Positions 41,757-62,314 of a DNA stretch of 64,000 bases are shown one piece after another (the first letter of the stretch is position 1; each line of letters opens with the position of its first letter). The notes under the pieces are model-generated. The model did not search any database, was not told the origin of the DNA, and saw only the letters and a program-made list of their open reading frames with translations. The stretch spans positions 495,625 through 559,624 of the forward strand of contig JACKFE010000002.1 in assembly GCA_020632635.1 (NCBI GenBank), given 5' to 3'. The position numbers and the translations under genes are program-made. Source of the stretch: Nitrospiraceae bacterium. GTDB lineage: Bacteria > Nitrospirota > Nitrospiria > Nitrospirales > UBA8639.

Positions 41757-43073
41757 ATGCAACCGCACACCCCCACACCAGCCAATATCCAACCTTCCCG
41801 AAGAGAGTTTCTCAAGAAGGCTGGAATTCTCACAGGTGGAATCCTGGCCTTGGGCCTGCCACTTCCACTCAGACAGGCCTCATCCGCCTTGGCGGCTGCA
41901 CCGCCATCTGATTCCGTCCGTTACGCTTTGGATCTTGGGGGCCAAATCGCAGGCCCGATCATCTCCTTGGATAGTGGATTTACTTCTGGGCAAGTGGTGG
42001 AAGGACGGCTGGGCCAATCTTTGTCTTCCAAGAAACATCTGGCCACCATTGTGCCTGAGGACGTCTTTCTCGAATGTAGAAATAATATGACCAAGGATTT
42101 CTATCTCTGGATCCAACAGGCATTGGGCGAACAGGCGCCAAAAAGAAGCGGAGGCATTCTGACCATGAGCATGGGAAACCAACTCTTGGACCGGCAAATG
42201 TTTACCGACGCGTTCATCACTGAGGTCACGTTCCCCGCCCTGGATCGGACTTCGACCATTCAGGCCTCAATTGGTCTGAAATTGAAGCCCCGGCAATGGA
42301 GCTATCAATCCGGAGGCAGCCAGATAGCCTTTCCAACAGGAGTCAATCTAGGCGGGTGGCTGTCCTCTCATTTCCGCGTCGGAATCTCCGGACTGGAATC
42401 CGCATGCGCCCATATTGTGAAAGTGGACTCTTTGGTCTGGAAACAATCCCTGAGCATGGCCCCGGACAGGCTTTCGTTCACCAGCGGACCCATTCAGACA
42501 CCAAATCTGGTCGTAACTCTCCCTCGCACACAGGCCGGTCCCTTTACCGAATGGTTTAAACAATTCGTCATTAATGGAAAATCTTCCGATTCCGACGAAC
42601 GTTCAGGGTCATTGGAGTTCCTGGCACCTGACCAGCAAACGGTATTATTCAAACTGAACTTTGAACATCTCGGTATTTTTCGGATGTCGCCCATAACCCT
42701 TTCCCCCACCAACGCCACCCCACTCGTCAAAGTAGAAATGTACTGCGAAACCCTGAGATTGACCGAATTCCCCAGCCCAGGACCGGCACAAACGCCCCTG
42801 ACACCGGCAATGGTTCTGGGAGTCTACCGCCACAACCCGGTCCAAAACGCTTGGCATGAAGGCTCGATTACTCAGGAGGGCGCCACACTCCGCTGGACGA
42901 ATAAAGCTGGAGCCACTTGGCGATTGGTACCCGACCTTGCCAACCAGCGGTTATTGGCTGAAGGACCCGATAACCCGTATGCCCAATATGGGTCAAAGGA
43001 ATTCAAATTGATCATGGAAAACGGCTTTATCAAAGGGTTCGCCTTCGGCGGGGGAACATACCTGAAACAATAA
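41757..43073 (+). CDS. Tat-exported protein with two tandem phage tail-tube (gp19/TIGR02241-like) domains and an extra C-terminal domain
   Basis: ATG at 41757 follows AGGGAG. Twin-arginine motif SRREFLKKAG. The pattern FxLDLGG...(E)VVE...KKH...FLEC...FYLWIQQAL...GGILTM...DAFITEVTFPALD...IGLKLKP resembles tube proteins. Paralog of 61223..62314. Confidence 0.55.
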   Translation: MQPHTPTPANIQPSRREFLKKAGILTGGILALGLPLPLRQASSALAAAPPSDSVRYALDLGGQIAGPIISLDSGFTSGQVVEGRLGQSLSSKKHLATIVPEDVFLECRNNMTKDFYLWIQQALGEQAPKRSGGILTMSMGNQLLDRQMFTDAFITEVTFPALDRTSTIQASIGLKLKPRQWSYQSGGSQIAFPTGVNLGGWLSSHFRVGISGLESACAHIVKVDSLVWKQSLSMAPDRLSFTSGPIQTPNLVVTLPRTQAGPFTEWFKQFVINGKSSDSDERSGSLEFLAPDQQTVLFKLNFEHLGIFRMSPITLSPTNATPLVKVEMYCETLRLTEFPSPGPAQTPLTPAMVLGVYRHNPVQNAWHEGSITQEGATLRWTNKAGATWRLVPDLANQRLLAEGPDNPYAQYGSKEFKLIMENGFIKGFAFGGGTYLKQ

Positions 43074-43309
43074 GGTCGCAGACCAAACAAGCATGCATGC
43101 AATCGTTATTCATGCATGGAAGTACGTCATATGATCTGATCAGGCAAAGAAATGAAGATCTGTACTCTCTGCCTCATTTTTACCCCTAGGTTGTTGCTTT
43201 TCACCTGAGGGTCTCAGGACGCCGACCTCATCCTTCAACAATAACTAAAAGAGGTGACGAGAGACACGTTGGGGAATCGTGGAGTGAGCGGGCAAGGAAC
43301 ACGCCAGCA

Positions 43310-43662
43310 ATGACGGCAAAGCATATGTCCATTGATGAATATGACCAATTGCTGCTTCAATCCGGAAACGCTTCAATACTCCTCCTCAATAATAGTGCCA
43401 TGCCTATCAATGGAAAAATTCTTTCCCTGGTTCAGGATCAGCCTCAATTGTATGGTCCATGGCACTTGCGGAGTATCATCACAATCCCGCACAAAATGAT
43501 TGGCACATGAGCATGAGCTGGATCGAACAAGATCAAGCCAGTAATCTGCGAGGAAGCTCCTGGATGTGTGGGCTTTCGTTCAATACATTCTTCTCGTTAA
43601 TTATTTCTCCCAAAACACTCTTCTCTCCCTTTTCATCTCAGTACCGTACGAATTTATTCTAA
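43310..43662 (+). pseudogene. Frameshifted remnant resembling the C-terminal domain of gene 41757..43073
   Basis: Two overlapping short ORFs. LAEYHHNPAQNDWHMSMSWIEQD compares with LGVYRHNPVQNAWHEGSITQEG of the upstream gene. Confidence 0.35.
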
Positions 43663-43965
43663 GTCGGTTCAGACTGACACGGAGTACGGCTTTTCCATCT
43701 GTCTCTTTCTGCGTGAACGCTTGGAATAAATACCTACCTCATTCTTCGTAAATATTGAATCTTGTGCCGAAAAATCTCCTCAAACTGTGGAAATTGACTT
43801 CACACTCGTGACTTGGCCTCTTTACACTAACCGTTAGCAACCCCCACACAATTTCATCCAATAAATGGGCTTGAACCTCCCAAGACCTTCAAGCGACTGA
43901 CTTGAAAAATATGGAAACCCAATGATTCCCCATTCAATCCTGTTCACCCTTGAAAGGAATGACAT

Positions 43966-44535
43966 ATGCGGATACTCATTTTCACGTTCATCGTCAGCTT
44001 GTGGCTTCACGGATCCCTTGCGCATGCGGCTGATCCACAAAACACCAAACAGGTTCTCGAGTTACAACGACAAGTGTCGATCCTCCAACAGGAAGTCACA
44101 CGCCTAACAAGGATCATAGATGCGTCGCCAGACGGCACCATACGCATCACCGCGCCCCAGCACAAACAGGAAACGACAGGAGGCAATGTCCAAACCTCCA
44201 TCAGTGGACAACAGGTCTTGCACATCGGGCAGGCTGTTTCTGAACGGATCGGCACCACACAATCCATTGCAATCGGAACCACCCAGTCTGTCTCTGTCGA
44301 ACAAGATGCGCAGCACACCGCAGGACGCAATGCCATTCACCAAGCGGGTGGCGATCTCACATTGATGGCCGGGAAACGTACGATCATCACGGCGGGCGAT
44401 CAATTGATCCTAAAAACGGGACAAGCCTCGATCATACTGAATAAAAACGGAGATATTCTCCTGCAAGGCAAGGACATCCAAATCAAGGGGTCTGGCCAGG
44501 TCAACATGAAAGGATCAAAGGTCACCACACAATAA
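43966..44535 (+). CDS. Secreted coiled-coil protein with a VgrG/gp5-needle-like beta-helical C-terminus
   Basis: Signal peptide MRILIFTFIVSLWLHGSLAHA. Heptads VLELQRQVSILQQEVTRLTRII. C-terminus: GDLTLMAGKRTIITAGDQLILKTGQASIILNKNGDILLQGKDIQIKGSGQVNMKGSKV. Confidence 0.65.
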   Translation: MRILIFTFIVSLWLHGSLAHAADPQNTKQVLELQRQVSILQQEVTRLTRIIDASPDGTIRITAPQHKQETTGGNVQTSISGQQVLHIGQAVSERIGTTQSIAIGTTQSVSVEQDAQHTAGRNAIHQAGGDLTLMAGKRTIITAGDQLILKTGQASIILNKNGDILLQGKDIQIKGSGQVNMKGSKVTTQ

Positions 44536-44704
44536 GGAGGCTATGGCAGTGAGAGATCGCTCTTGAGAAATGGGGCGACTGCAAACAATGCCATTCTGAC
44601 ACTTATCGCTCAAAACGATTCACGATGGCATGTCGCTGTGTATCGGGGAAGGCAGTGGCTTGTTGATTCTCATGTTCCCCTAGTACAGAAAGGAGTTGGT
44701 ACCC

Positions 44705-45373
44705 ATGAAACACTCATGTCCAACCACCCTCACCCTTCTAAAGAATCTGGGTCTCTCGGCCCTTGTATTCACCTTTGTCGTGGGCTGCTCAACCACACAG
44801 ACGCCCCCATCCGAAATCGCCTCGGTGGAAGAAATCCAGGAGGTCGAAGCGGGCAATGACCCAGCCATGGAGGGAACGGATGCGGGAGCCCCTCAAGACT
44901 GCGTGGACAATGATGAACGACCGGCCTGTCACGTAAAATCCAGAGGACTCGGATTTGTTCCCATTAAGGTGAAAAGTGAAACCACCCAACGATGTCTGCG
45001 CCCGAACGGCGGAAGCACTGCCGAAAATGTCGAAATTATCATGTCGACTTGTTCAGAGACGAAAAGCCGCCGGTGGTACCGGGAGCAAGGGGTGTATGCA
45101 GGCGGGGACAAGATCATCAACTTGAACTCCGGAAAATGTATCGAACGAGTCGGGACCGTCCTGCGACAACGGACTTGCGCCAACTCATCTAACCCCACCA
45201 GTGCCCACAACCAAACTTGGGTCTTTCAAGGAACTCCTCCCTTCGGAAGCGGAGACTTTTTGAAGTCCTGGACATCGGAAGGCGGATGCGCCCGAGCCAT
45301 GAATGCAACGAACGTCCGAATGTCGACGTGCCAAAACGATGCAAACCGACGCTGGTATCAATCGGCCTTTTAA
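44705..45373 (+). CDS. Lipoprotein with a ricin-type beta-trefoil lectin domain
   Basis: ATG at 44705 follows AAAGGAG. Lipobox ALVFTFVVGCS. Three QxW-like motifs (RRWYRE, QTWVFQ, RRWYQS) with paired Cys. Confidence 0.75.
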   Translation: MKHSCPTTLTLLKNLGLSALVFTFVVGCSTTQTPPSEIASVEEIQEVEAGNDPAMEGTDAGAPQDCVDNDERPACHVKSRGLGFVPIKVKSETTQRCLRPNGGSTAENVEIIMSTCSETKSRRWYREQGVYAGGDKIINLNSGKCIERVGTVLRQRTCANSSNPTSAHNQTWVFQGTPPFGSGDFLKSWTSEGGCARAMNATNVRMSTCQNDANRRWYQSAF

Positions 45374-45475
45374 GAGAACCAAATACCTGTCAACCACTTA
45401 GGCAGGAAGGAGGCATTCTCCTTCCTGCCCAGGCAAAACGTGACGTTGGACCTTACGACAAGAGGAGTTTCTCTC

Positions 45476-46012
45476 ATGAGACCATTCCAAATCCCCCTCA
45501 TCGCATTGTTGTTTGCGCTACAATTATCTGTCGCCTTGGCAGCGGATCCCAGCTTTCGGCAGGCCCAGCCGCATCAGATGGCTCCCCAACGGGGCAGCAC
45601 GATTCCTCAATTGCAACTGACACCAGACTATCTCTACCAACAAATCACGGCTCTCCAACAGCAGGTCGTCACCCTTCAAGGTCAAGTAAATCTCCTGCGG
45701 TCCGTGGTTCAGGTTTCTCAAACGGAAACGACGATCCAAGCTGAAAATCTCAGCCTAAAAGCCACGAAGGCTCTAGCCCTGAACTCAGGAAAGGACACCA
45801 CTCTCACCGTTGAGAATGAATTCACACTCACTAGCGCCAAAGACTTGCTGATCAAAAGTGGGAAAACTGCCAACGTGGAAGGTGGCGCCCTTTTGAACCT
45901 CAAAGCCCCACAGGTCAAACTGAATAATGGCAGCAAACCAATGGCCACCGTCGGAAGTATTGTGTCCGGAGGAAAAGTTATCTCAGGGAGTCCAACCATT
46001 TTCGGCCCCTAA
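45476..46012 (+). CDS. Secreted coiled-coil protein with a spike/needle-like C-terminus (paralog of 29386 and 43966)
   Basis: ATG at 45476 follows AGAGGAG. Signal peptide MRPFQIPLIALLFALQLSVALAA. Heptads ITALQQQVVTLQGQVNLLRSVV. C-terminus: LLNLKAPQVKLNNGSKPMATVGSIVSGGKVISGSPTIFGP. Confidence 0.65.
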   Translation: MRPFQIPLIALLFALQLSVALAADPSFRQAQPHQMAPQRGSTIPQLQLTPDYLYQQITALQQQVVTLQGQVNLLRSVVQVSQTETTIQAENLSLKATKALALNSGKDTTLTVENEFTLTSAKDLLIKSGKTANVEGGALLNLKAPQVKLNNGSKPMATVGSIVSGGKVISGSPTIFGP

Positions 46013-46058
46013 GTTGTCCATTATGCCTCGATCACTCAACAAGAGGAGTATGCCTATC

Positions 46059-48167
46059 ATGACTCGATACCCCCTATGCCTGCTGACTTGTCTCTTGGCT
46101 GTCATCTGTTGGCCCCCTCACTCAAGCCTGGGTGCCATAGACGATCCCTTTACCTCCATCCAGCTGGACAAAGCCGTCCACTTTCTGGCGGCCGACGGAA
46201 GTGATGTAGAAGTCGACCCCGGCACCTACAACGTGGAACCCGCAGAAGAGTGGGTTCGATTGGTTCCCGAGAAACGTCGAGATGCGGTCCTCATCGAAGC
46301 GAAGGAGCGGACTCATCCCCTTACCCTTGAGCATCCCTTGGCTATGGCCTTTTCCGGGAACGCTCCCGATGAAGCCGATCATCAGTATGTGATGCTCTTG
46401 TTACCAGGTGGACGGAGCTTGGAAGCCACAGGCACTTACAGTGGAGTCCGCCCCAGAGGGTTCAATCTCGGACAAGCGTTTAACAACGCAAAAAACACGG
46501 CGACTAATGCCTATAACCAAGCCAAATCGACTGCCAATCAAGCGGCCAAAAACGCCGCCAATGCGGCACAACAGGCGGGGCAACAGGCTCAAGAAACCGC
46601 ACAACAAGCAGCTCAACAAGGCCAACAGGCTGCCCAGCAAGCCCAACAGAGAGCCCGGCAGGCGGCTTCGCAGGTGCAACAAGGGATGCAGCAGGGCATG
46701 CAAGACGCGCAAGCGGCAGCGTTGCGTGCGAAACGAGCAGTCGAACAAGGAGCCCGACAAGCCGGTCAGGCCATTGGAGGGGCCATTCAAACTCAAGTCA
46801 ACAATCTCAAAAACAATCCCATGGTCGCCCAACTGGAAAGCGAAATTCAAACCTTGGAGGCAGTCAGAAAGCTCAACCTGGACCCCCTGTTCACTTGTCT
46901 CCGGCAACAATCGGGACAGGGTGCTGCGAACGTACCGCAATTGGTGCAGCGATTTGCCACCAGTCCGCCGGCATTCGCTAACTGGCTTTTTCAAGAGGTC
47001 ATGCAAGAGTGGGAACGGAGCTTTGGGGAGATCATGGCCGAACAACTGCAAACCCTTCGGAATCCCTCCCGCACTGCGCCACAAGGACCGGAAGTGATCG
47101 CCATGGCCTTTCGATCTCTCGAAAAATTAGCCAACAAGGGCCCAGGGGGGCGCTGCCTCATGCAGTTCGTCCGGCCCCACCTGCAGGCGATCCAAGCCAC
47201 ATCTGGACAACTTCAACAGACGATCCAGGCTCAAGGACAACGCATGTTTGACAACCAGGTAGCGCCCATTCTGTATGGGAGCTTGAGTAAACAAATTGGA
47301 GACCTGGTGTCTGCGGCCTTAACCCTGACACCACAAGACATCGCCCGCGCCAAGACCCAATCAAGAGGCATCCCGCTGCAACAACGAGGGACAGCCGATG
47401 GCGGAACGACCTTCAATGGCATCGTGAGCCGAGGGTTTTCCGGAGAAGATGCCAAGGCCCTCTTGGGGGAGATCGTTCCCGGCTTAGGCGACATCATCGA
47501 CATCAAAAATGCGGTATTGGCCGACCAATTACTAAACCCCCGTGAGTTGTCCAGAGCGGCCTCCCAGGTTGAGTCCCTGACGAAATTCCTCAATAACCCT
47601 ACACAACGCCAACAGGCCTTGACCGGTGTCCGGACGGCCTTGGATCCCAACACGCCATGGACGGAATCCTTGTACATCGACATCGGCATGGAGATTATCC
47701 GGGTGGTGGGGAAAAACTACATCGATAGCGAATTACCGGGAGGCGGGAGTTTTCTCATTCGATCGGGAGTGGAACTGCTGGACTTCGGCGAACAAACCGT
47801 GGGGACTGTCGTCCAAAGCGCCGCGGGCCTCGTTCCTGAAGTCGGTGGAATCGTATCCGGCATCGCCAAAGTCACGCCGGACGTCATCTGGAAATTGACC
47901 ATTAACAATCTGATCGTAGGCAGTGTCAAAGCCGGAGCCCATTATGCCTATGGCAAAGTCATCGATGAGGCCAAGAATGCATTGAAAAACAACCAAACCT
48001 ACGCCGCCATTCAACGTCATGCCGGGCCGTTATCAGCACTGCTCCGGTATTTACCCTCGAAACAGCAAATTATTCTTTTGGCCAGTACTCATACGGAGGA
48101 CACCCGCAAAGCCTTGGAACGCTACAACCGCAGCGTGCTGCAACTGGCCGAAGCCGCCGCTCGGTAA
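46059..48167 (+). CDS. Secreted protein with the shared N-terminal module, a Q/A-rich helical region and a large C-terminal domain
   Basis: ATG at 46059 lies ~10 nt after GGAG. Signal peptide MTRYPLCLLTCLLAVICWPPHSSLGA. The module ends LLLPGGRSLEATGTYSGVRPRG. AAQQAGQQAQETAQQAAQQGQQAAQQAQQ. Confidence 0.8.
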   Translation: MTRYPLCLLTCLLAVICWPPHSSLGAIDDPFTSIQLDKAVHFLAADGSDVEVDPGTYNVEPAEEWVRLVPEKRRDAVLIEAKERTHPLTLEHPLAMAFSGNAPDEADHQYVMLLLPGGRSLEATGTYSGVRPRGFNLGQAFNNAKNTATNAYNQAKSTANQAAKNAANAAQQAGQQAQETAQQAAQQGQQAAQQAQQRARQAASQVQQGMQQGMQDAQAAALRAKRAVEQGARQAGQAIGGAIQTQVNNLKNNPMVAQLESEIQTLEAVRKLNLDPLFTCLRQQSGQGAANVPQLVQRFATSPPAFANWLFQEVMQEWERSFGEIMAEQLQTLRNPSRTAPQGPEVIAMAFRSLEKLANKGPGGRCLMQFVRPHLQAIQATSGQLQQTIQAQGQRMFDNQVAPILYGSLSKQIGDLVSAALTLTPQDIARAKTQSRGIPLQQRGTADGGTTFNGIVSRGFSGEDAKALLGEIVPGLGDIIDIKNAVLADQLLNPRELSRAASQVESLTKFLNNPTQRQQALTGVRTALDPNTPWTESLYIDIGMEIIRVVGKNYIDSELPGGGSFLIRSGVELLDFGEQTVGTVVQSAAGLVPEVGGIVSGIAKVTPDVIWKLTINNLIVGSVKAGAHYAYGKVIDEAKNALKNNQTYAAIQRHAGPLSALLRYLPSKQQIILLASTHTEDTRKALERYNRSVLQLAEAAAR

Positions 48168-48218
48168 CACCAAAAAGAGCAAAAGGCAATCAGATTCCTC
48201 GCACCACAAGGAGGCCTT

Positions 48219-50288
48219 ATGAAATTCAAAAAACATACGATCGTATTATCCATGGCCGTGGCGATTCTCGCCTCCTCTATAATAAGCATTGCCCCGGCCC
48301 TAGCCGGTACGATCATTACCTTGGAGCAACCCGTCCACTTTCTGAATGCGGAGGGCAGCGACATCATCCTCGAAGCCGGACAGTATGAACTGGCCTCAGC
48401 CGATGCATGGCTACGCGTAACCCCGAGCGACGGACAAGCCGTCGATGCGCTTCTTTTGGAAGCCGTGACCGCACCACATGAGGAAGCGGTCACGGAACCA
48501 TCGGCCCTTTCGGTCCAAGGAGAACAGGCGGATCGCCATCATTTAGTCTTGTTGTTGCCGGACGGCAAACAACTGGAAGCCGTCGGCACGTATTCCGGCA
48601 TCCGTCCACGAGGAGGGTTACGGACTCTTTCTCCCGCCCGCCGAACGCTCGCACTGAACCAGGCCTCATCTTCCACAAGCCCGAAAGTTTCGTCGAGTAC
48701 GCCGACCATAAACCAAGGACAACTGAGCATCCAACCGGGGCCGAGACTGGGAGGCGGCATCAATGTTCCTCAGCCTCCTCTCCAGACAACCGGGAAACCC
48801 GTGCCGAATCCCCCGATTCTCGTTAGTCCGACAGAAAATTTCGAAATTACCGGTTCCGCCTCCCCACAAAAATATTTCACCTGGCATCCCCCAACGTCAG
48901 GTCCAGGCATCTCGTCCTATCGATTTAAAATGGAGGAGGCCGATAATCCCTCAGGCTATGTCTTGGGTCCGACGCCGGTTCCGGCGACATCGGGGACCAC
49001 CATTGCCACATCCCAAATCATTTCGTATCAGTATCGGGGCAAGCGGATACGATGGAGCGTTCAAGCCTGCACCTCGGATGGCCAATGCAGTGCTCCGGCT
49101 TCCCGGATTCTGGTGTGGTCCACAGGACTTCGCCCCCCGCAATTACGTTTTCCTGAATCCGGAGCCACGGTCACCACCTTACAACCCCGCCTTGAATGGT
49201 CGGAGGTTCGCGAGGCGACGTATTATTTGGTGTGCGTCTCTAAGCCGGGAGTCCAATGCCCATCACGCGAGACCGCGCCTGGCAGCAATCCCCATTCCGT
49301 CGTCATCAAAAGGATTGGTCCGTCGAACACGGTGGCTGCGCCGGACCTCACCCAGTTTTTCGGAGAACAGATGAATTGGACAGTGTCCGCCTGCACCACC
49401 GATGGGAACTGCGCCATCCAACCTCAAGTCCGGCCTATCACGATCGCTCAAGCGCCAACCCTACGCAACGGTGGCATCACGTTACGTCCTAGCCGGGCAT
49501 TCGAATGGGTCTCCAACTCCAACGCACCGCAATTCAAACTGTGTGTCTTTACGCAGGGAACCGCCTGTGCGGCTTCCGGAAATCTATTGGAACAAGACGT
49601 AAGCCGGAACAATGGTAAGTTACAGACCGATATTCCCATCCTGAATCAGCTACGATCAATGGCGGGAAAGGGGGTACGGTGGCAAGTCGCGGCCTGTACC
49701 CCCAGGAAATGTCTTTGGTCCACCCCCGCGACCGTATACATCCCGGAATCCGTGTGGCGGGTCATATTCAGCGTCCGGTATATCGACCTCTTTCATGATT
49801 GTGATGAGGCCAGCCCAGGCGACTTAAAGTTTTCATTCCGGGCAAGCATCAGTCCAGAGAATGGCTACTACGAACGCACGTCCGTGAGTAATTTCGACTT
49901 CGGCAATTATAACAATTTCGAATCGGGAACCCAGATTTACGTTGGAAGGCCATTCGCCACCCTTCCCGAGGCCATCCCAGGCGATGAGATCTCGGTGTGG
50001 GGCGTAGCCTATGATTGCGATCGAGCATCCTGTGGTGAAGAAGTGGTCGAGCTACTGACCACCGGGAGCGACGACAAACTTGGAGACATCCCACGTAGGA
50101 ACTGGAAAAGTCATCGGACCGACTCAGCGAGTCCGCTGGGCTGGCTGGAGAGCGATAACTTGCTCGAAATCCAAAGCCGCAACACCAGTTGCTATGCCCT
50201 GATCCAAGGATTACGAGGAACCGATCAAGGACGCTTTGACCATACGTTTTCCGTCTTCTACGAAGTGCAAAAGACAAAAATCTGGTAG
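48219..50288 (+). CDS. Secreted protein with the shared N-terminal module, three Cys-containing ~90-aa repeats and an unknown C-terminal domain
   Basis: Signal peptide (…IISIAPALAG). The module ends LLLPDGKQLEAVGTYSGIRPRG. Repeats carry RWSVQACTSDGQC, NWTVSACTTDGNC and RWQVAACTPRKC. Confidence 0.8.
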   Translation: MKFKKHTIVLSMAVAILASSIISIAPALAGTIITLEQPVHFLNAEGSDIILEAGQYELASADAWLRVTPSDGQAVDALLLEAVTAPHEEAVTEPSALSVQGEQADRHHLVLLLPDGKQLEAVGTYSGIRPRGGLRTLSPARRTLALNQASSSTSPKVSSSTPTINQGQLSIQPGPRLGGGINVPQPPLQTTGKPVPNPPILVSPTENFEITGSASPQKYFTWHPPTSGPGISSYRFKMEEADNPSGYVLGPTPVPATSGTTIATSQIISYQYRGKRIRWSVQACTSDGQCSAPASRILVWSTGLRPPQLRFPESGATVTTLQPRLEWSEVREATYYLVCVSKPGVQCPSRETAPGSNPHSVVIKRIGPSNTVAAPDLTQFFGEQMNWTVSACTTDGNCAIQPQVRPITIAQAPTLRNGGITLRPSRAFEWVSNSNAPQFKLCVFTQGTACAASGNLLEQDVSRNNGKLQTDIPILNQLRSMAGKGVRWQVAACTPRKCLWSTPATVYIPESVWRVIFSVRYIDLFHDCDEASPGDLKFSFRASISPENGYYERTSVSNFDFGNYNNFESGTQIYVGRPFATLPEAIPGDEISVWGVAYDCDRASCGEEVVELLTTGSDDKLGDIPRRNWKSHRTDSASPLGWLESDNLLEIQSRNTSCYALIQGLRGTDQGRFDHTFSVFYEVQKTKIW

Positions 50289-50341
50289 AGCCATGTGGAA
50301 AATCGGGAATGCATAATCACCCACAAGGGGGACTTGGGACA

Positions 50342-53684: not shown

Positions 53685-54314
53685 ATGAGAATGCCTTTTA
53701 CATTAGCCATTGGGATCTTGTGCCTGAGCATGGGAAGCCCCGGCTCAACAGGAGCTGCCCCCAATCCCGATCTAGAAGCGCTGGCTCAAGGTTCTGTGGT
53801 GCAGTTCAGCGGGACGGAGCGGATCTCCCAGCCGTTTGTGTTCGACTTGGATATCACCGCCCCTCACCCTGCCCTCGATTTTGACAATATCGTCGGGCGG
53901 CCCTTTCAGATTGCCGTAGCTCGAGGCCGGGCGGTGGCCGGGATGGTAGAACGGGTAGAACAGAGGGGAGTGTCCGGTCGACAAGGCCAGTATCGCATCC
54001 GCCTCGTGCCGGCCCCCAATTGCCCGGTCGTCTTGGGAAGCATGTGGAACGGAAAAGACCTGTCTCCCACTCAGCAGCCACCGAATAAATTCCTGTCACT
54101 GTTCCAAAGCCGTTCGACAACCGGTACGTTAAATGAAATTCTCTTCGACGCCACGCAGGACAAGGAACGGTTGATCATGCGGTCCGGCAATCAGTATCTC
54201 TCCCTGAGCCCGCAAGGCATCACCGCCTCCACAGCTATCACCGTTCCCACAACGACAGTTCCCAAGCTTCAATCTTCGCCTCGATTGAATTTTCAGAACA
54301 GGCCAAATAGGTAA
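53685..54314 (+). CDS. Signal-peptide-bearing miniature VgrG-like protein (N-terminal gp27-like start fused to a gp5 OB-end/needle-start segment)
   Basis: Signal peptide MRMPFTLAIGILCLSMGSPGSTGAAP. VQFSGTERISQPFVFDLDITAP...IVGRPFQIAV...GQYRIRLVPAP matches the VgrG N-terminus pattern. It is followed directly by PVVLGSMWNGKDLSP...LNEILFDATQDKERLIM, matching the PxVxGSLWNG...NExxFDDxxGxE block. Confidence 0.6.
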   Translation: MRMPFTLAIGILCLSMGSPGSTGAAPNPDLEALAQGSVVQFSGTERISQPFVFDLDITAPHPALDFDNIVGRPFQIAVARGRAVAGMVERVEQRGVSGRQGQYRIRLVPAPNCPVVLGSMWNGKDLSPTQQPPNKFLSLFQSRSTTGTLNEILFDATQDKERLIMRSGNQYLSLSPQGITASTAITVPTTTVPKLQSSPRLNFQNRPNR

Positions 54315-54409: not shown

Positions 54410-57400
54410 ATGAGACGATTTCTTATCATCTCCATGTGGTTCCTCATCGGTAGTTTGATGGCTATAGATTCTCATCTCGAAGCCGGGAGTGACCTTCATC
54501 TTCCGCAGGTGACGCTAAACCAGTCGACCTCATTTCTCGGCTCGGATGGGGACACTATCGAAGTGCCATCTGGAACGTACACAGTGGAACAGGCTGATAA
54601 CTGGATTCGACTCCAACAAGACGAGCGTCGTGATGCCATCATCCTGCAGGCGAGCCCCCTAACACATATAGAGCCTGTCACCCATTCACAAGCCATACTG
54701 AAACAACACGGATTCAACGAATTTCAGCTCATGCTACTACTCCCAGATGGAACCGGCCTCACTGTCACGGGACAGAGCCAGTTAACATCACGAGGGATTT
54801 CGGCGCTGGCCCGTTCACCGACTTCTCCAAAAAGCGCTGGGGGAAAAAGTACCCTTCCTCAGGGCCTTGGATCGGCATCAGCCGGCATTCCCCAAGTGAC
54901 CCAAGCTCGGCCAACCGTGGACGTTCCCACATCCACCGCCTCGCCACTCTTTGAAGCGACTTACTTGCCCTCGTTTAAAGGGACGCGCATGCTGGAAGGT
55001 CGCGTCTCACGCCTCCCCGTCAGCGCCTTTCACCAGCAAATCATTACTAGTACGACCGGGCTCGAACTGCGGACCCGATGCCTGGGTGAGAACGACACGG
55101 GTATGATCGTCGACATGTCCTCCAATCCCATGACCGATACCTTGGAGCCGATCCCCAGAGGACTGTCGCACACCCTACCTCCGACGAGACTGACCACTCT
55201 CTACAATGACGATCATCCCTCGGCAGAAGGGAACCATCTGGGAAGTTATATTTGTGCAACCTGCCAATCTCCTGCGCCACCTACCTCGATTCGAGCCACA
55301 GTGTACGTTTTCAGCCAACGTCGGGCTACGGCCTATTGTACGTTGGAAAAGAAAGAACCCACCGGCTGGCAACCGCTGACCAACCCTCCGTTTCAACATT
55401 TTGGCGGGACCCTGGTGGATGTCGGCCCGCTCCAACCACATGACTACCTGGAAGTTCAAACCCAAGACTTCACCGGATGGCCGGACTATCAAGCCAAGGA
55501 TTATGATACCCGCATGCTTCTCTTCCAACCGACCAGTCCGGCAAACGGATTACTCTATAACGAAAATGCCCGTTCGGATCGTGATCCCAAAATCGTCATT
55601 CCCAATAGCGCCTGGAGCCATGGATCCAATTACGTGTTACTTGGAAAATCTCAGCCACACACTCAATCTAACAAAGGGGTCGAGGTGAACATTGACCTCG
55701 TACGTGGACCGTTGAACCATGGCCAATCTTCTCATACATTTGGCACCTCCCATCTTCTCTCACCAGGTCGGTACTATGTGTGGCTGTATGCGAAAACCAC
55801 TTCGCCGGTCGGGACTCCAACCCCGAAGCCCCATTCGTCCGCCGACATGAACAGGGCTCTTGAGAATGGATTTACCTGCCCACCGATCATTACCCCCAAG
55901 TCGTCCACAAAAAATCCTCAGTTGAGGGGAACGCTCAACTCCAGGGCATTCGACTTTCGGATTATCGCCAAGCAAAACGGCGCTTGGACAGAACGAAAAC
56001 GCCGGACAATCCTGAAAGGCCAAATGGGTGCGAAGGCGGGAGATCTGAATCTTTTCCTCATGGACCTCGATGTGCCCATTCCCACCGAGATCGCCGTTGA
56101 AGTTCAACATCCAACTCAAGATGTGGAATTTTTCCCACAATGGCGGGTTATGCGGAATCCGGATGCCAGTGATTTCACGGTGGCATCTTTTAATACCCTC
56201 TACGACTCCGGTTCACCTCATGCAAGGAAAACCCGTAATGCGGCCAACCTCCTAGCTTCCCGTGGCATGATTCAACCTGGCACCGGGGCCATTCTTGAGC
56301 CCACTGACCAGGCACCCTGGCAATGGGATGCTGATCTCATTGGTCTGCAAGAACTCAGAGACGGAGATGACGATGGATTTGCGGAATACTTTTACGCGGA
56401 TGTTTTTGCCCGAGAAGCGATGCAGATGGGCTCTCGATCCTGGAATGTCATTCGAGGGCAGGACGAAGACTTCCCGAATGCGGTGGCCACCGATGGGCGG
56501 GGTCCGGTGTTTATCACCGAGCACCTTTGGAGGAGTGGGAATGCCAACAACATTTTCCTTCCGAATTCACTTCTGAAGAAAGCCCGTTGCAAGACCTATG
56601 ACCGAACCAATGAATATGAATGTGCCTTGGAGGATGGAGCCAGCGATTTTGTCAAGACGTTTGGCATCCCGGGTCAAATCAGTATCCCACGTTATCGGTC
56701 AGTGACCGCATCCGGACAGCAAGAAGCTGATCGGCCGATCATGGTAGTCAATCTTCATTTGGCTGACGGATCCTCCGGTTGGTTGAAGAGACGCAACCAA
56801 CTCAATAATCTCATGACCAAACTCCGCACCTTTCTCAAGGAAAACCCCTCGGCCTTTAACAGTGAGGGGAAAAACCACCCACACCATTACCAAAATCGAA
56901 TCCTCTTACTCGGCGATTTCAATTGGTCTGCGCATCATTGCGGCGAGCACTATTGGTTCTTGCACACCCTTCGGGAAGCGTTCGGCTATGCGGTGGACGT
57001 ATCGATGGCTGCCAATGACAATGACATGCATGATCGCATGGGCGCCATCGGCTCCAATGGTATTCCACAGAACTGGGAAAGTGCCAAAAGTTGGAAAAAG
57101 GACCCGTCCCGCCATACCAAGTTTCCCTGGTGGATGACTACCCACCGAGGGAAAGCAGGGAACCTGTATGACCGGAATGAACGGTACGATGCCATGATGT
57201 TAGTCGGAGCCGGATGGGCCTATGACGATCCGGTCCGAGAGTATGAAGTTCTGTGGGATCGAAACGGCAATAATCCATTGAATGGTGACTCAAAGGGTGG
57301 TGTGGAAATGGCCGACACGGGGAACCTCGTCACCCAAAATGGGTACCGCCCTCAATATGCGTTGAAATGCCGAAAACCAAGTTGCGAGGAGGAAGATCGG

Positions 57401-57484
57401 ACGAACTCAACGAAACCAGGCGACCCGGCCTTAGATTCTGATCATTTACCCATTCGAGCACGACTTCGGGTTTTTATCCGATAA
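54410..57484 (+). CDS. Secreted protein with the shared N-terminal module, a large middle region and a C-terminal endonuclease/exonuclease/phosphatase (EEP) domain
   Basis: Signal peptide (…LMAIDSHLEAG). The module ends LLLPDGTGLTVTGQSQLTSRG. EEP motifs: FTVASFNTL, LIGLQEL, VVNLHL, LLGDFNW, LDSDHLPIRARL. Confidence 0.8.
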   Translation: MRRFLIISMWFLIGSLMAIDSHLEAGSDLHLPQVTLNQSTSFLGSDGDTIEVPSGTYTVEQADNWIRLQQDERRDAIILQASPLTHIEPVTHSQAILKQHGFNEFQLMLLLPDGTGLTVTGQSQLTSRGISALARSPTSPKSAGGKSTLPQGLGSASAGIPQVTQARPTVDVPTSTASPLFEATYLPSFKGTRMLEGRVSRLPVSAFHQQIITSTTGLELRTRCLGENDTGMIVDMSSNPMTDTLEPIPRGLSHTLPPTRLTTLYNDDHPSAEGNHLGSYICATCQSPAPPTSIRATVYVFSQRRATAYCTLEKKEPTGWQPLTNPPFQHFGGTLVDVGPLQPHDYLEVQTQDFTGWPDYQAKDYDTRMLLFQPTSPANGLLYNENARSDRDPKIVIPNSAWSHGSNYVLLGKSQPHTQSNKGVEVNIDLVRGPLNHGQSSHTFGTSHLLSPGRYYVWLYAKTTSPVGTPTPKPHSSADMNRALENGFTCPPIITPKSSTKNPQLRGTLNSRAFDFRIIAKQNGAWTERKRRTILKGQMGAKAGDLNLFLMDLDVPIPTEIAVEVQHPTQDVEFFPQWRVMRNPDASDFTVASFNTLYDSGSPHARKTRNAANLLASRGMIQPGTGAILEPTDQAPWQWDADLIGLQELRDGDDDGFAEYFYADVFAREAMQMGSRSWNVIRGQDEDFPNAVATDGRGPVFITEHLWRSGNANNIFLPNSLLKKARCKTYDRTNEYECALEDGASDFVKTFGIPGQISIPRYRSVTASGQQEADRPIMVVNLHLADGSSGWLKRRNQLNNLMTKLRTFLKENPSAFNSEGKNHPHHYQNRILLLGDFNWSAHHCGEHYWFLHTLREAFGYAVDVSMAANDNDMHDRMGAIGSNGIPQNWESAKSWKKDPSRHTKFPWWMTTHRGKAGNLYDRNERYDAMMLVGAGWAYDDPVREYEVLWDRNGNNPLNGDSKGGVEMADTGNLVTQNGYRPQYALKCRKPSCEEEDRTNSTKPGDPALDSDHLPIRARLRVFIR

Positions 57485-57692: not shown

Positions 57693-59861
57693 ATGCGAGC
57701 ATATTGGACAGTTATTCTTTTGAGCTTGATGATCCATGCAAGCATGGGCACGGTCTATTCAGCATCCGCTCCACCGAAAATTTCTGTGGAAACGCCTATA
57801 TACTTCTCTGCCGCCGACGGGAGTGAAATGCTTCTCACACCTCACGTCTATTCGGTGCAAAGTCGAGATCCATTCCTAGAAATGCGACCCGTCGGGGCAG
57901 ACAGAAAAGAGACGATATTACTCAACGCGACCATCGGCACCCACCAGGAGTCTGTTGGGTCAACTACTGCCTTCCTCACAACAGGAGATGAAGAGAATTC
58001 GTATCATCTTGTTCTGTTGAAGCCGGAGGGAACCGCTTACGAGGCTATCGGCACGACGACAAGTCTCCGCTCCAGGGGAACCACGACACGCCTCACCCCA
58101 ATCCGTGTACAGTCTCTCCTGCAAAATCTGAAGAGCCAGACTGTACCGCTCAACAGACCGCCCCTTTTCCCCATCCCGACTATCCCGCCATCAGAGGTAC
58201 AGACCACGAACCCGTGCGTTCGGGATGTTCGCGAGGATTTCCTCAAAATACGGACGCATGGCGATAAACTCGGGTTCCGTCATACTCAATCACCCGGAGC
58301 CTATACTGGAAGTGGCAGTTCTCATTATCAGGGCATTCAACGATTGGGCAATTATCTGGCCATATCCGGCAGTGCAGCCCATGCCGGTGAAATTATGGTC
58401 GTCGAAATGCAGTCCAGAGCAAAGACCGGCCGGTTTCGTTCCAATCGGCTCTCCTCAAATACGCCCCCCAACAATGACCGGGTTATCAAAGTCATTGAAG
58501 CCAGTCGCACCCTGACTCACGCTGGTGGATTTCAGATCATGGGAGAGGTGCTGGCCGTCGGGGTAGAAGGAAGCAATCAATCCGAAGTGGTGTTCTATAA
58601 CATCAAAGATCCGACCAATCCACAAGAGCTGTACCGGATTTCGCGTTCGGGAACCATCGGAGGGTTTAGCGAGAAACCCAGTGCCGGAGCAACAGCCCTG
58701 GTACAACGCCCGGATGGTCGCTTTCTCCTACTAGTCGGACGGTCGGATTCCAACGTTCTGGATTTCTACCTCTCCCGAAATGCCAATATCCTGACCAACA
58801 CATTTGTCCACGTCGATTCCTGGCACGAGCATGAACTGCAAGGCATGGATCGGGAATTTGGAAACTATCAGAACATCAACTTCGTCCGGCAATGTGACGG
58901 CCAGGTCTTTGTTGTTGGACTTCATAAAAACGTGAACCTAGGAGGCATCCTCAGCGGAGGAGAGGATTGGGCCGATTTGTTTAAACTGGAACTGCTTCAA
59001 ATCGGACAAATCGGAAATCCCGGTATCCTCCGTCATCATACGGTCGTTACGAAAATCGCGAACCGGCATCTGTACTGCCATGACATCTGCGACTTCGATG
59101 CAGGCGCTGGCGTGTATGTCGATTCACAGGGAGAATTGTTCATCTATGGAGTGGAACATTGGCGGCACAAGGGCATTGTCCGGTTCAATGAATTCAGGCC
59201 GGTTCCCTCATCCGTCTCACCTCCCCTGCTCGACCTCAATCAGACCTGGATCGAACTCTATGACGACCGTGCCTTTGGCGATCGCAGTATCATGATCGAT
59301 TTCCGTGACCATTCATTGAGAAATTTTTCTGACTATGATCAAGTTGAAGGATTCGAGGACAAAACCTCCTCCGCCAAGTGGGTCATTCCCTCGGGTTGGC
59401 AATACTTGCTGTTTGAGGACAAATCATTCAAGGGACGCTTGCTCAGACTGTCCGGGACCGGCGGTCTAGGAGCCATTTCCGACTTCAGCCCCAGAGATTG
59501 GAACGATACAGTCTCATCCTCAAAATTTTCTCCCGTCACGATCACACAACTCGGCCAAGCCTGGGTCGAACTTTTCGATGATCATACGTTTAAAGACCGG
59601 CGTCTGAGGATAAACGGAGGTTCGGCTGGAATTTCTAATTACCAAAATATCACTGTGGAAGGACAACGAGGATTTGGGGACAACGTCTCTTCAGCCCGAT
59701 ACATGATCCCCAATGGTTTGGTTTACCGCTTATATGAACATGACTCTTATCGGGGAAAAACCTTGGATTTGGTAGGCACCGGACGAATCGAGGAAATTCC
59801 TGATTTCACTACCCGAAGCTTCAATGACCAAGTCTCTTCGTCCAGATTTATCACACCATAG
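57693..59861 (+). CDS. Secreted protein with the shared N-terminal module, a middle domain related to the C-terminus of gene 2535..4727, and two beta-gamma-crystallin domains
   Basis: Signal peptide (…MIHASMGTVYSA). The module ends LLKPEGTAYEAIGTTTSLRSRG. Four Greek-key motifs: LYDDRAFGDR, LFEDKSFKGR, LFDDHTFKDR, LYEHDSYRGK, each followed by VSSxK/R[FY]. Confidence 0.8.
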   Translation: MRAYWTVILLSLMIHASMGTVYSASAPPKISVETPIYFSAADGSEMLLTPHVYSVQSRDPFLEMRPVGADRKETILLNATIGTHQESVGSTTAFLTTGDEENSYHLVLLKPEGTAYEAIGTTTSLRSRGTTTRLTPIRVQSLLQNLKSQTVPLNRPPLFPIPTIPPSEVQTTNPCVRDVREDFLKIRTHGDKLGFRHTQSPGAYTGSGSSHYQGIQRLGNYLAISGSAAHAGEIMVVEMQSRAKTGRFRSNRLSSNTPPNNDRVIKVIEASRTLTHAGGFQIMGEVLAVGVEGSNQSEVVFYNIKDPTNPQELYRISRSGTIGGFSEKPSAGATALVQRPDGRFLLLVGRSDSNVLDFYLSRNANILTNTFVHVDSWHEHELQGMDREFGNYQNINFVRQCDGQVFVVGLHKNVNLGGILSGGEDWADLFKLELLQIGQIGNPGILRHHTVVTKIANRHLYCHDICDFDAGAGVYVDSQGELFIYGVEHWRHKGIVRFNEFRPVPSSVSPPLLDLNQTWIELYDDRAFGDRSIMIDFRDHSLRNFSDYDQVEGFEDKTSSAKWVIPSGWQYLLFEDKSFKGRLLRLSGTGGLGAISDFSPRDWNDTVSSSKFSPVTITQLGQAWVELFDDHTFKDRRLRINGGSAGISNYQNITVEGQRGFGDNVSSARYMIPNGLVYRLYEHDSYRGKTLDLVGTGRIEEIPDFTTRSFNDQVSSSRFITP

Positions 59862-60450
59862 GAACCCTCTAGACTTGAGCACCTACTCCATCTCGATACG
59901 CCGCCGTATCTCTTTCGATACGACCGACCGTCGATATTCCTGAAATTGTATACGCCTTCGCCTCCAGTGTACTCATTTTCCCTGTCATCATCCATAGATA
60001 CCTAAAACCAACCAAGCCATGAATCCACTGGGCTCAGATGGCATAAGGGTTGCGTAACCCATTGAACAAGAACACGCGCTGGGATGACAACGATGACAAA
60101 GAAAGAGAATCATCCACCAGATTTCCTTGATGCCGATCTCCCTACCATAGGAGCACGGTCGATCTCTTATCGGAGTGTCAAAATCAGAAGGGACCGTTCG
60201 CTCTACCCCATTGAAAGCATAGATAAAACGATGGTTATGAGAAAAACGGCTGTCCGTCTCTTGGAATCACCTGAGGGGGAACTCTCCGACTGGACGAATC
60301 ACTTTCTATCCTGTGATTCAAGGATCTTGTGCAGGCCGAATATCCCCATGATGCATATACGTTCGCTGTCTCACAAAAGACATTTTTTGTCCCAAATGTG
60401 CCAATTTCATGACATGGTCTGAATAGCCGCTTGACGAGGAGGGAAGCCCC

Positions 60451-60666
60451 ATGGATGACATCATGAGCATTTCTCGATCATTGGAAAAAGGGATGTACAT
60501 TTTGCGGGAAGGCGATTGCCTATGGAGAATCGATGAAAAAGGCAGGGTCGAGGACATGGCCACGGGCCTGACTCGAGTCTTCGAACAACTGGCTTTTATT
60601 CAGCAATGGAAAACGCCGTCACGAGGCATTTTTGAGGAACATCCCCAACAAGATCCGTCAATTTAA
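60451..60666 (+). CDS. Hypothetical small ORF (71 aa)
   Basis: An ORF only, with no signal peptide. It contains PSRGIFEE, which resembles the island motif. Weak support. Confidence 0.25.
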   Translation: MDDIMSISRSLEKGMYILREGDCLWRIDEKGRVEDMATGLTRVFEQLAFIQQWKTPSRGIFEEHPQQDPSI

Positions 60667-61222
60667 CAGGCAACGATACGGTGCAGTCCGATCTGCTTTC
60701 AGGTATTTCCTGTATCCCCTCCCCCTCGAGTGCCTAAGAAGAGTAAATCCAAATGCATCTGCCTTCACCTTTTAGGTAGGAACGACTCTCGGTCTCATTG
60801 AGAAAATTTGAATGTCAAAAAATACAAAGGATTTCGCTACTGCAGGGATCAATATGACTGAAAAAAATTGATAAGGCTCATACCCGACGGAATAACGAAC
60901 CATAGTTCAAGTGTGGGAGGGATGCCTCGCCCTACGAGACAGCATGCGGATGTGGCACATCAATAATGTGATCGTCGACTGTTATGTTCGGAGGCATACC
61001 AAAATCTTTGAGCTCCTTTCCGGCATGCCAGGCAGGGAATTCCGTTTCCTAATTTTCCTCACACATTAATTTCTTGTCAGGCCCATTTCGCTCACCTCCT
61101 GCCCGGAATGACGCCTACAGCACATCGTCCTCTTACATCCTCCCCTATTCCTTAACACCTTACGACGTTCAAAACATTCGGGTGGATGATTGCGCTGCCC
61201 AAGCCCTACCAATTTTGAGGCT

Positions 61223-62314
61223 TCACCCAAACTCGGGGACGACCTTTTCGCAATACATTTCAACCTGCACATACCCCGGCTTGTCAGGAAGTCGCACCAC
61301 ACTCACGATACCAAGATGCTCAAGGTGGAGCGTAAAAACCACTGTATTGTTTTGAGTGGGGGATAACCATCGCAGGGTTCCCTTTTTTTCAAACCTGTCC
61401 GCATTCAACCCCTTAATGACAAAATTGGCATGCCAATCATAAAAGGGCTGGGCCTGAGTTTCGGGAAGCACTACCTTTACATTTGAATAATCTTGAGGCT
61501 TCGTTCCCGGAAAGCCGGAAACCGTCGGATTTGGAGGAAGGAGGCCTGCGGAAAATATTGGGGTCTCGACTCGGGCGACTTGTTGAATGCCCCCCCAACC
61601 ATCAATAGAAAAATGAAAATAGCCTTTCAACGGGGTACTAGACATAGAAGGCTTGACGAATTGAGAGGCCGCATAGCTTCCAGAAACACGTTGAGTTTGC
61701 ATGACACCGATAGTCACACGAAGGGACGCTGAGTGCCCAGGTAAAGCAATATCGGCATCTGGGAACGATAACTCCCGCAAAAAGCCCCCAGAAAATTGGA
61801 GCTCATTTCCTTGTTCTGCAAAGCGATCCTTCATGAAGATTGAACCGGTAATCGCCTGAGTGGCTCCTTGAAGGCTGTTGACCAGCCAGTTATTAAATGA
61901 CTGGCCTGGAACAGGAAGGTAATAGAACACCAGATCACGGTATGTGAATCCCTGAATGTGTTTGAAAATCCGACCCTCCATCCCCTGCTGGCCGGAAGAG
62001 GATCGTCCCGCTGCTTCACCTCCCTCAAATCTGAATATCTCCAGAGGGCTCCCACCAAAAGACAATCCAAAGATTTGTGGATATCCCATCAATGGATCGG
62101 GAACAATTTCCCTTGGCGGCGACTGCCGGGACGGCTGAGATATGTCGGCATTGACTTCAGGAATCGACAAGGCTGCTAAGGCTGCCCCAGCCCCTTGGAA
62201 AACCCCAAGGGGAAGGCCAACCGCGGCTAACCCACCCATACTAGCCAGCCAGAGAAATCCCCTCCGTGAGAGAGCCCCATCCGAATCCCGTGGTCCTGGT
62301 TCCGCTGAATTCAT
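61223..62314 (-). CDS. Tat-exported protein with two tandem tail-tube-like domains (paralog of 41757..43073)
   Basis: Twin-arginine motif LSRRGFLWLASMGGLAAVG. Its second domain aligns with that of the paralog: VVLPETQAQPFYDWHANFVIKG...GTLRWLSP...VVFTLHLEHLGIVSV...VQVEMYCEKV versus VTLPRTQAGPFTEWFKQFVING...GSLEFLAP...VLFKLNFEHLGIFRM...VKVEMYCETL. Confidence 0.55.
   Translation of the reverse strand: MNSAEPGPRDSDGALSRRGFLWLASMGGLAAVGLPLGVFQGAGAALAALSIPEVNADISQPSRQSPPREIVPDPLMGYPQIFGLSFGGSPLEIFRFEGGEAAGRSSSGQQGMEGRIFKHIQGFTYRDLVFYYLPVPGQSFNNWLVNSLQGATQAITGSIFMKDRFAEQGNELQFSGGFLRELSFPDADIALPGHSASLRVTIGVMQTQRVSGSYAASQFVKPSMSSTPLKGYFHFSIDGWGGIQQVARVETPIFSAGLLPPNPTVSGFPGTKPQDYSNVKVVLPETQAQPFYDWHANFVIKGLNADRFEKKGTLRWLSPTQNNTVVFTLHLEHLGIVSVVRLPDKPGYVQVEMYCEKVVPEFG

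Follow-up and report, generated by a model that had tools for sequence, protein, structure and literature searches.

A 64,000-nucleotide stretch of Nitrospiraceae DNA from contig JACKFE010000002.1 (hereafter the window) encodes two proteins, named A and B, that consist of two tail-tube-fold domains in tandem. As judged from their sequences, both also carry an N-terminal signal peptide of the twin-arginine translocation (Tat) type. In Nitrospirota, the genes of such proteins lie in clusters with VgrG-like, Hcp-like and needle-like proteins, which bear signals of the general secretory (Sec) type. We put it at a little better than an even chance that the Tat-exported tandem tubes and their Sec-exported partners form a sheath-less tube-spike assembly outside the cytoplasm.

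Both open reading frames (ORFs) were present at the positions given in an earlier note on this DNA, and the motifs quoted there were recovered from the translations, namely SRREFLKKAG, SRRGFLWLAS, KKH, VFLEC, FYLWIQQAL, SGGILTM, FTDAFITEVTFPALD, IGLKLKP, VVTLPRTQAGPFTEWFKQFVING, GSLEFLAP, VLFKLNFEHLGIFRM and VKVEMYCE. One string, given as FALDLGG, was the exception, its true reading being YALDLGG. The wording of the note suggested the minus strand for both genes, which was right for gene B and wrong for gene A, which reads on the plus strand (Table 1). The two proteins were full-length paralogues with 26% identity over 356 columns (BLASTP, E = 8e-25), and gene B lay about 18 kb from gene A in the opposite orientation. 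Gene A has two possible starts, as an ATG at 41727 precedes the one at 41757 (MQPHTP...). The upstream start is unlikely, because the N-termini of the homologues correspond to 41757. Gene A had 32 homologues, most of them with a precomputed PF06841 match, and gene B had 20, all from Nitrospirota. Furthermore, proteins P0001 and P0177 (99–100% identical) occurred in many samples, P0001 being 99% identical to A.

Predicted Twin-Arginine Signal Peptides of A and B

The N-terminus of A read MQPHTPTPANIQP-SRREFLK-KAGILTGGILALGLPLPL-RQASSALA, with AAPP following the predicted cut. It had the exact S/T-R-R-x-F-L-K consensus and a Gly/Thr-rich, moderately hydrophobic h-region. The c-region included a basic residue, an A-x-A site was present, and a lipobox was lacking. 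The N-terminus of B read ...GAL-SRRGFLW-LASMGGLAAVGLPLGVF-QGAGAALA, followed by ALS, with an h-region and an ALA-A site. The RR motif was kept in every close A-type homologue. Among the 18 full-length B-type homologues, 16 had LSRR[DE]F and the remaining two had Sec-like signals. Moreover, one B-type homologue bears the NCBI name [quoted passage not shown], and another carries PF10518. In the AlphaFold2 (AF2) model of A, the predicted local distance difference test score (pLDDT) of the signal region was below 50, as expected for a signal. The Tat signals proposed in the earlier note were thus supported for both proteins by the motif, the h-region, the A-x-A site and the conservation in the family. 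No tat gene was detected by the Pfam scans of the window, which covered ORFs of at least 150 aa, a size above that of small ORFs such as tatA.

Tandem Tube-Like Domains

The AF2 model of A, obtained from a 26-sequence alignment, had a mean pLDDT of 76. Residues from about 54 to 340 were mostly above 90, and the linker at 343–369 was disordered. When the model was compared with the PDB by Foldseek, the top matches were tandem tube proteins, aligned over 324–372 columns: the T5 tail-tip ring protein 7qg9_G (E = 2.6e-9), 8xan_A, the P74-26 tail tube 8ed0_A, T5 pb6 (9iny_A) and DT57C. These were followed by single-domain proteins, including the tubes of the Photorhabdus virulence cassette (PVC), the antifeeding prophage (AFP), AlgoCIS and the contractile injection systems (CIS) of Anabaena and Streptomyces, as well as T4 gp19 and Hcp. 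The matches to the PVC, AFP, AlgoCIS, Anabaena CIS, T4 gp19 and Hcp chains had a probability of 1.00 and target-normalised template modelling (TM) scores of 0.6–0.73, in line with the likeness to the phage and eCIS tail-tube family (T4 gp19) suspected before. In addition, 142 matches at E ≤ 1e-3 were obtained in BFVD; the best were proteins of 300–350 aa, and the named ones were annotated as "major tail protein" or "tail subunit".

The sequence profiles led to the same fold. The family profile matched solved tubes of extracellular contractile injection systems (eCIS), namely 8bl4_v (E = 6e-9), Afp1 (6rao_A, 1e-5) and Pvc1 (5e-4), and a jackhmmer search seeded with a genuine eCIS tube recovered all the Tat forms. 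By hhalign, domain 1 matched the genuine single-domain eCIS tubes with a probability of 96.9% (E = 1.8e-10) and domain 2 with a probability of 96.4% (E = 1.1e-9), while domain 2 alone gave no match to single tubes. Protein B was recognised by the hidden Markov model of the family with an E-value of 8e-40. Accordingly, the AF2 core, Foldseek, the profiles and hhalign agreed that A contains two tube-fold domains in tandem, as the earlier note had held, and the same architecture extends to B through its alignment to A. PHROGs gave nothing for A or B. A weak match of A to the MOC1 resolvase (single-sequence phmmer against PDB sequences, E = 0.023) was spurious and was discarded.

Beyond the tube core, A has a C-terminal accessory domain, which was found among the homologues only in P0001. 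Its motif, G.YRH.PVQN.WH...WTNKAG..W...NPY, is the repeat unit of P0011, a protein with a Sec signal and four copies of the unit. A decayed copy of this domain was located at 43459–43662, within the 890-nt gap 3' of gene A, which contains no intact gene. The persistence of the decayed fragment in the gap suggests that the domain was fused to A recently.

Distribution and Origin of the Family

The family was large. A profile search of 1.84 billion representatives (clusters at 50% identity) returned 4,146 proteins at E ≤ 1e-3, including 1,732 at E ≤ 1e-30, and a scan of GTDB species genomes returned 167 relatives. From these 167, 80 loci were kept; the tally of sheath genes was made on 86 loci and the window, giving 87 sources. 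The 80 loci belonged to Nitrospirota, Myxococcota, Chloroflexota, Acidobacteriota, Verrucomicrobiota, Armatimonadota, Symbiobacteriaceae, Actinomycetota, Burkholderiales and one archaeon. The combination of an export signal with the tandem tube recurs in other genomes, Tat or Sec forms being found in at least eight phyla. The 283 non-redundant members comprised about 105 of Tat type, about 52 of Sec type and about 126 with no signal; these counts are approximate, since the classes came from a crude automated classifier that mislabelled some members, and the profile favours Tat forms. A mature-core tblastn search of 50,697 phage and 72,556 plasmid records found no relative.

The signal-less members indicated where the family came from. 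In a Myxococcota locus (L037, 6791–16358), the gene order was a Pvc16_N terminator, a sheath, two tandem tubes, a second sheath, a gp19 tube and a GPD hub. Because signal-less members fill the main-tube position in eCIS-type operons, the family is a real family of contractile-tail tubes. Sheath genes occurred in 27 of the 87 sources, and these 27 included neither the window nor any Nitrospirota or exported-type locus. Within 10 kb of the tube gene, a sheath was found at 0 exported-type loci versus 26 signal-less ones. Furthermore, the targeting has switched several times, because a rough neighbour-joining tree interleaves the classes.

At L037 and about 25 other loci of Myxococcota type, the main-tube slot was occupied by two adjacent signal-less tandem-tube paralogues, besides a single gp19-type tube. 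A derivation of A and B from the two paralogues of this Myxococcota eCIS pair was considered and received no support from the neighbour-joining tree, in which B stood on a long branch and which is too crude for firm conclusions. C-terminal tails were also seen in parts of the family. A Nitrospirota subgroup (P0013, P0016–P0021 and P0033; L008:2859-4055 and L009:3912-5105) had a Pro- and Lys/Arg-rich tail ending in ...PRLPQKQ, and Acidobacteriota and other members (L069, L070, L077 and L078) had Arg-rich tails.

Signal-Bearing Partners in the Nitrospirota Cluster

Between genes A and B, the window encodes secreted proteins only. In Nitrospirota, the gene order around the tube gene was DUF928, needle 1, Tat-tube, needle 2, proteins with a shared N-terminal module (modN, described below) and a full VgrG-like protein. 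Another Nitrospirota clade has, as its second Tat-tube, one of B type, together with one or two genes for Hcp-like proteins. This association was kept across Nitrospirota contigs, though their tube proteins are only 33–51% identical. It also held for a B-type gene, which adjoins needle 2 and modN genes in L088. The gene order of the window was rearranged relative to that of L001.

The partners of the tube proteins also bore signals. An N-terminal Sec-type signal was present on the Nitrospirota VgrG-like proteins in 7 of 7 lineages examined and on 5 of 5 Hcp-like proteins examined. In one Hcp-like protein, the signal, ending in ...SYA, was joined straight onto the canonical Hcp N-terminus, ATEMFLFMQGVSGEA (PF05638, T6SS_HCP, E = 9e-24). 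The full VgrG-like partner had the domains Phage_GPD, Phage_base_V and DUF6484 (E = 9e-66). The copy of this gene in the window was shorter: its residues 2–110 aligned to residues 3–110, and its residues 75–207 to residues 409–535, of the 541-aa protein L001:14055-15680.

Needle 1 had weak matches to Gp5_trimer_C and DUF2345 in Pfam and to baseplate-hub families in PHROGs. It was recovered by jackhmmer seeded with a VgrG-like protein (E = 7e-37) and is therefore homologous to the C-terminal spike of VgrG. The gene was syntenic with the tube gene in L001, L003, L008 and L009. Needle 2 matched L001:11138-11674 with an E-value of 2e-64, and the L088 homologue matched both needle families. Sheath, terminator and single-tube genes were absent from the window and the Nitrospirota loci, and no baseplate or ATPase gene was detected in the window or the Nitrospirota cluster. 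The Pfam scans of the window revealed no phage genes (tape measure, capsid or terminase). The earlier note had regarded Tat export of tube-like proteins as an unusual repurposing. That view was strengthened by our results, since signals are present too on the spike-tip, VgrG-like and Hcp-like proteins nearby, and no sheath accompanies them.

The modN Proteins and Other Genes

The modN module is an all-beta N-terminal segment of about 105 aa, which stands right after the signal peptide in at least 11 secreted proteins of the window and ends in the conserved GTYSG[IV]RSRG. The C-termini that follow it are widely different (Table 1), which makes this a polymorphic-protein architecture. The AF2 model of modN (residues 29–140 of the 48219..50288 protein) had a pLDDT of 88 and ten strands. 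It gave no credible fold match in the PDB (best E = 0.028, TM about 0.3), and the module had no Pfam family. A search of the large database returned 19 short proteins only, so that the C-terminal diversity is not visible there. As far as this search reached, modN appears to be confined to Nitrospirota.

Some further features were noted. Much of the 64-kb window codes for secreted proteins without a Pfam match, and Rfam and tRNA scans of its whole length found no tRNA, tmRNA or Rfam family. Between the two needle genes, an ORF at 44696–45373, missing from the syntenic L001, encodes a lipobox-like signal (FVVGC) and a ricin-type beta-trefoil lectin domain. Proteins with DUF4384 and caspase-like (Peptidase_C14) domains recurred near the clusters (window 233–2265; L010:19000-21006; L088:13140-18734).

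Table 1. Positions of genes A and B, their predicted parts and the neighbouring genes in the window.
Feature	Position	Strand	Description
Gene A	41757..43073	+	438 aa; Tat signal, tube domain 1, tube domain 2, linker, C-terminal accessory domain
Predicted Tat signal peptide of A	41757..41894	+	aa 1-46; S14-R-R-E-F-L-K20, h-region AGILTGGILALGLPLPL, c-region RQASSALA, predicted cleavage after A46
Tube-like domain 1 of A	41916..42356	+	aa ~54-200; Pfam gp19 stretch, hhalign, profile matches to Streptomyces CIS tube, Afp1 and Pvc1
Tube-like domain 2 of A	42357..42776	+	aa ~201-340; C-terminal end is the conserved VKVEMYCE; hhalign and Foldseek
C-terminal accessory domain of A	42789..43070	+	~90 aa, aa ~345-438; beta-rich with low confidence in the AF2 model
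Gene B	61223..62314	-	363 aa; divergent paralogue of A with Tat signal and two tube-like domains
Predicted Tat signal peptide of B	62174..62314	-	aa 1-47; S16-R-R-G-F-L-W22, h-region LASMGGLAAVGLPLGVF, c-region QGAGAALA, predicted cleavage after A47
Tube-like domain 1 of B	61643..62077	-	aa ~80-224; boundaries from BLASTP alignment to A; family HMM
Tube-like domain 2 of B	61241..61642	-	aa ~225-358; ends in YVQVEMYCE, kept in the B-type family; BLASTP alignment to A
DUF928 protein, directly upstream of A	40206..41390	+	Signal, modN, DUF928 (Pfam E 9.8e-22); syntenic in L001-L003
Needle 1	43966..44535	+	189 aa; Sec-type signal, coiled coil, gp5-C/VgrG-C-like beta-helix
Needle 2	45476..46012	+	~178 aa (ORF opens at 45440); Sec-type signal, coiled coil, repetitive beta region
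modN protein	46050..48167	+	ORF opens at 45927; ortholog of the 698-aa protein after needle 2 in L001
modN protein	48219..50288	+	689 aa; C-terminus without known match
modN protein	50309..52495	+	728 aa; two CxxCH haem-binding motifs near the C-terminus (CTNCHG, CANCHT); weak Cytochrome_C7 match
modN protein	52575..53543	+	322 aa
VgrG-like gene with Sec signal	53685..54314	+	209 aa; in-frame internal deletion, relatives 541 aa; Pfam Phage_GPD E 1.7e-10
modN protein	54410..57484	+	1024 aa; weak endonuclease/exonuclease/phosphatase-like (EEP) region
modN protein	57693..59861	+	722 aa; beta/gamma-crystallin-like C-terminal repeats; ortholog L001:16302-18041
Four further modN proteins	11594..29293 (upstream region)	+	11594-13540 (two modN copies), 15225-17219, 22409-23080, 27923-29293; phmmer

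Relatives Linked to Methyltransferases and Encapsulins

Outside Nitrospirota, the exported members were either orphans, as in L004, where the gene stands among housekeeping genes, or adjoined genes for protein methyltransferases. The latter arrangement was found at nine loci in four phyla, with a signal-less methyltransferase 3–61 nt from the Tat-type tube gene; L081 has a second copy 1,560 nt away. Two unrelated types were involved: PKMT-type enzymes in Verrucomicrobiota and Myxococcota (L017, L022, L032, L045 and L060), and DUF7059-MTS-DUF7782 enzymes in Actinomycetota and Chloroflexota (L063, L076, L081 and L086). This neighbourhood suggests that cytoplasmic modification of the tube protein, by methylation before export, is common. 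Such a modification would explain the use of Tat.

Some signal-less members lay directly downstream of encapsulin (Linocin_M18) shell genes (L005:9126-11611, L006:4837-7819, L040:354-2954 and L053:9063-11080). They had long flexible linkers and ended in ...[ST]LRFR[TKA] in L005, L006 and L040 (for example, ...GTSLRFRT) or in ...GASRIRPI in L053. In addition, the members in L005 and L040 were fused to an N-terminal S-adenosylmethionine (SAM) methyltransferase, and an Hcp gene lay just upstream in L006. The tails in L005, L006 and L040 resemble cargo-loading peptides, and these proteins may be a new type of encapsulin cargo.

Proposed Assembly and Alternative Explanations

In the sheath-less assembly proposed here, A and B would reach their folded state in the cytoplasm and be carried across the membrane by Tat in that state. 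Once in the periplasm or on the cell surface, they would assemble into rings that are trimeric and pseudo-hexameric, as do T5 pb6 and P74-26, the tandem tube proteins closest to them in structure. The rings might then stack on or beside a trimeric VgrG-like hub and the needles, giving a non-contractile tube-spike structure without a sheath, for which the modN proteins would be the likely cargo or partners. The accessory domain of A might be displayed as a surface decoration, by analogy with the decoration domain of T5 pb6. Two extensions of this proposal are more tentative. The first, to which we give clearly less than an even chance, is that the Nitrospirota cluster represents a tail-derived apparatus of a new type, built outside the cytoplasm, that holds or delivers modN-tagged proteins. 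The second, part of the same reading and put forward with the same reserve, is that the eCIS tandem-tube protein has been sent to new destinations several times, namely to the periplasm by a Tat or Sec signal, in many cases paired with a dedicated cytoplasmic methyltransferase, and to encapsulin shells by way of a C-terminal tail like a loading peptide.

Several results weigh against the proposed assembly. The match of A to PF06841 (Phage_T4_gp19) was limited to aa 79–167 and, at 22.9 bits (E = 8.3e-5), fell below the cut-off of 28.2; B had no match to this family. The tie between the tube proteins and the VgrG-like, Hcp-like and needle proteins is drawn from gene neighbourhood. In the window, the VgrG-like gene has lost an internal part and an Hcp-like gene was not found, nor was any outer-membrane or envelope-spanning component identified there or in the Nitrospirota cluster. 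Moreover, since the members elsewhere are orphans or stand beside methyltransferases, the exported tube protein can evidently work without a spike. The low Tat score of B and the limit of the Cys330 comparison, both given below, belong here as well.

The main rival explanation is that the exported tandem-tube protein needs no partners and serves, in the periplasm or on the surface, as a ring, a fibre or a scaffold for binding. It might be methylated before export, and the clustering would be that of a "secreted-protein island". The exported members of other phyla, which have no VgrG or Hcp nearby, would fit this explanation, as would the nine loci at which methyltransferases of two unrelated architectures adjoin the tube gene. 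So would the intact state of A and B beside a deleted VgrG-like gene, and the distance and opposite orientation of gene B. However, the Nitrospirota association of tube, needle, modN and VgrG-like genes holds at 33–51% tube identity and is repeated for B-type genes (L088). It would also be an odd coincidence if VgrG-, Hcp- and tube-like proteins, which belong to one complex in all known systems, had gained signals and clustered without interacting. We therefore consider a solitary function fairly unlikely.

A second alternative concerns the N-terminus, which might be an uncleaved membrane anchor, or a Sec signal with a chance RR pair, so that the tubes would be tethered or exported unfolded. 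With respect to the curated cut-off of TIGR01409 (16.7 bits), A was barely above it (17.1 bits) and B was below it (10.0 bits). Related members are also clearly of Sec type, so the fold can be exported by Sec. On the other hand, the motif of A is exact and strictly conserved, the h-regions are Gly/Thr-rich and moderately hydrophobic, and a basic residue precedes the A-x-A site in the absence of a lipobox. A further difference was seen at the nearly invariant Cys330 of the EMYCE motif, which was kept in 85% of the Tat-type, 93% of the signal-less and 50% of the Sec-type members (Fisher p = 7e-6, kinship being ignored in this test); where it was lost in the last, Val mostly took its place. In this residue, the RR-type members resemble the cytoplasmic ones and differ from the Sec-type ones, a pattern that fits folding of the Tat forms in the cytoplasm. 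An N-terminus other than a cleavable Tat signal is thus quite improbable.

Another idea is one of defence, in which the exported tube-, hub- and Hcp-like proteins would serve as decoys in the periplasm. Phage tails, tailocins or type VI secretion system (T6SS) spikes on their way in would be capped or jammed by them. The compartment is the one that incoming tail tips cross, and the folds would be common to the parts of the invaders. However, none of 10 cluster proteins matched a PADLOC defence model. The many large modN proteins, with their enzyme-like and lectin-like C-termini, are better explained as cargo or partners, and the methyltransferase and encapsulin links of the relatives would be left without explanation. 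A role as decoys is accordingly very unlikely. Finally, decaying eCIS or prophage remnants with fortuitous signal-like N-termini, to which the deleted VgrG-like gene, the decayed copy of the A accessory domain and the rearranged gene order might point, are hardly credible given the intact ORFs of A and B, the invariant residues common to several phyla, the many Tat-type and Sec-type members in the sample, the recurrence of P0001 and P0177 in many samples and the lack of phage or plasmid homologues.

Comparison with Known Systems

The periplasmic NxrA of Nitrospira is a classical Tat substrate. Like such substrates, A has the S-R-R-x-F-L-K motif, a weakly hydrophobic h-region and an A-x-A site, and pre-folded export would be common to both. 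Unlike them, A and B have no evident cofactor-binding domain. Probably it is not cofactor insertion that makes them use Tat, but fast folding or oligomerisation or, in relatives from other phyla, methylation in the cytoplasm.

The inner tubes of eCIS (Afp1, Pvc1 and the Streptomyces CIS tube; PF06841) share the fold of A and B, with homology at the profile level, and are the closest to them in sequence. However, they are single domains of about 150 aa, whereas the proteins of the window are tandem duplications with a core of about 290 aa and Tat signals, and score below the curated Pfam threshold. In addition, eCIS operons contain sheath, baseplate, terminator and ATPase genes, and the window has none of these near A or B. 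The tandem tubes of siphophages (T5 pb6, the T5 p140-like 7qg9_G, the P74-26 tail tube protein and DT57C) gave the best full-length structural match and have the closest architecture, though the identity to A was only 6–14%. The phage proteins have no signal peptide, and A has no phage context. Tandem tubes of the T5 pb6 and P74-26 type form trimeric rings with pseudo-six-fold symmetry, and T5 pb6 carries a C-terminal decoration domain.

With respect to the Hcp-VgrG pair of T6SS and the eCIS spike, the Nitrospirota partners are bona fide family members, but each has a Sec-type signal fused to the canonical core. T6SS also has a TssB/C sheath, a baseplate and a membrane complex, none of which was found in the Nitrospirota cluster. 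A full-text search of the literature, incomplete in its coverage of journals, yielded no account of tube, Hcp or VgrG proteins that bear signals, nor of tube-like encapsulin cargo.

To our knowledge, all characterised machines derived from phage tails (T6SS, eCIS, tailocins and thylakoid- or membrane-anchored CIS) assemble tube and spike in the cytoplasm. If the proposed assembly is real, tail-like structures can also be built beyond the inner membrane, and the Nitrospirota, which include globally important nitrite oxidisers, would possess envelope structures or secretion devices of a new class. It would also be a natural case of Tat handling a self-assembling ring protein. The family would then offer compact, exportable and apparently encapsulin-loadable tube modules, with possible use in protein engineering.

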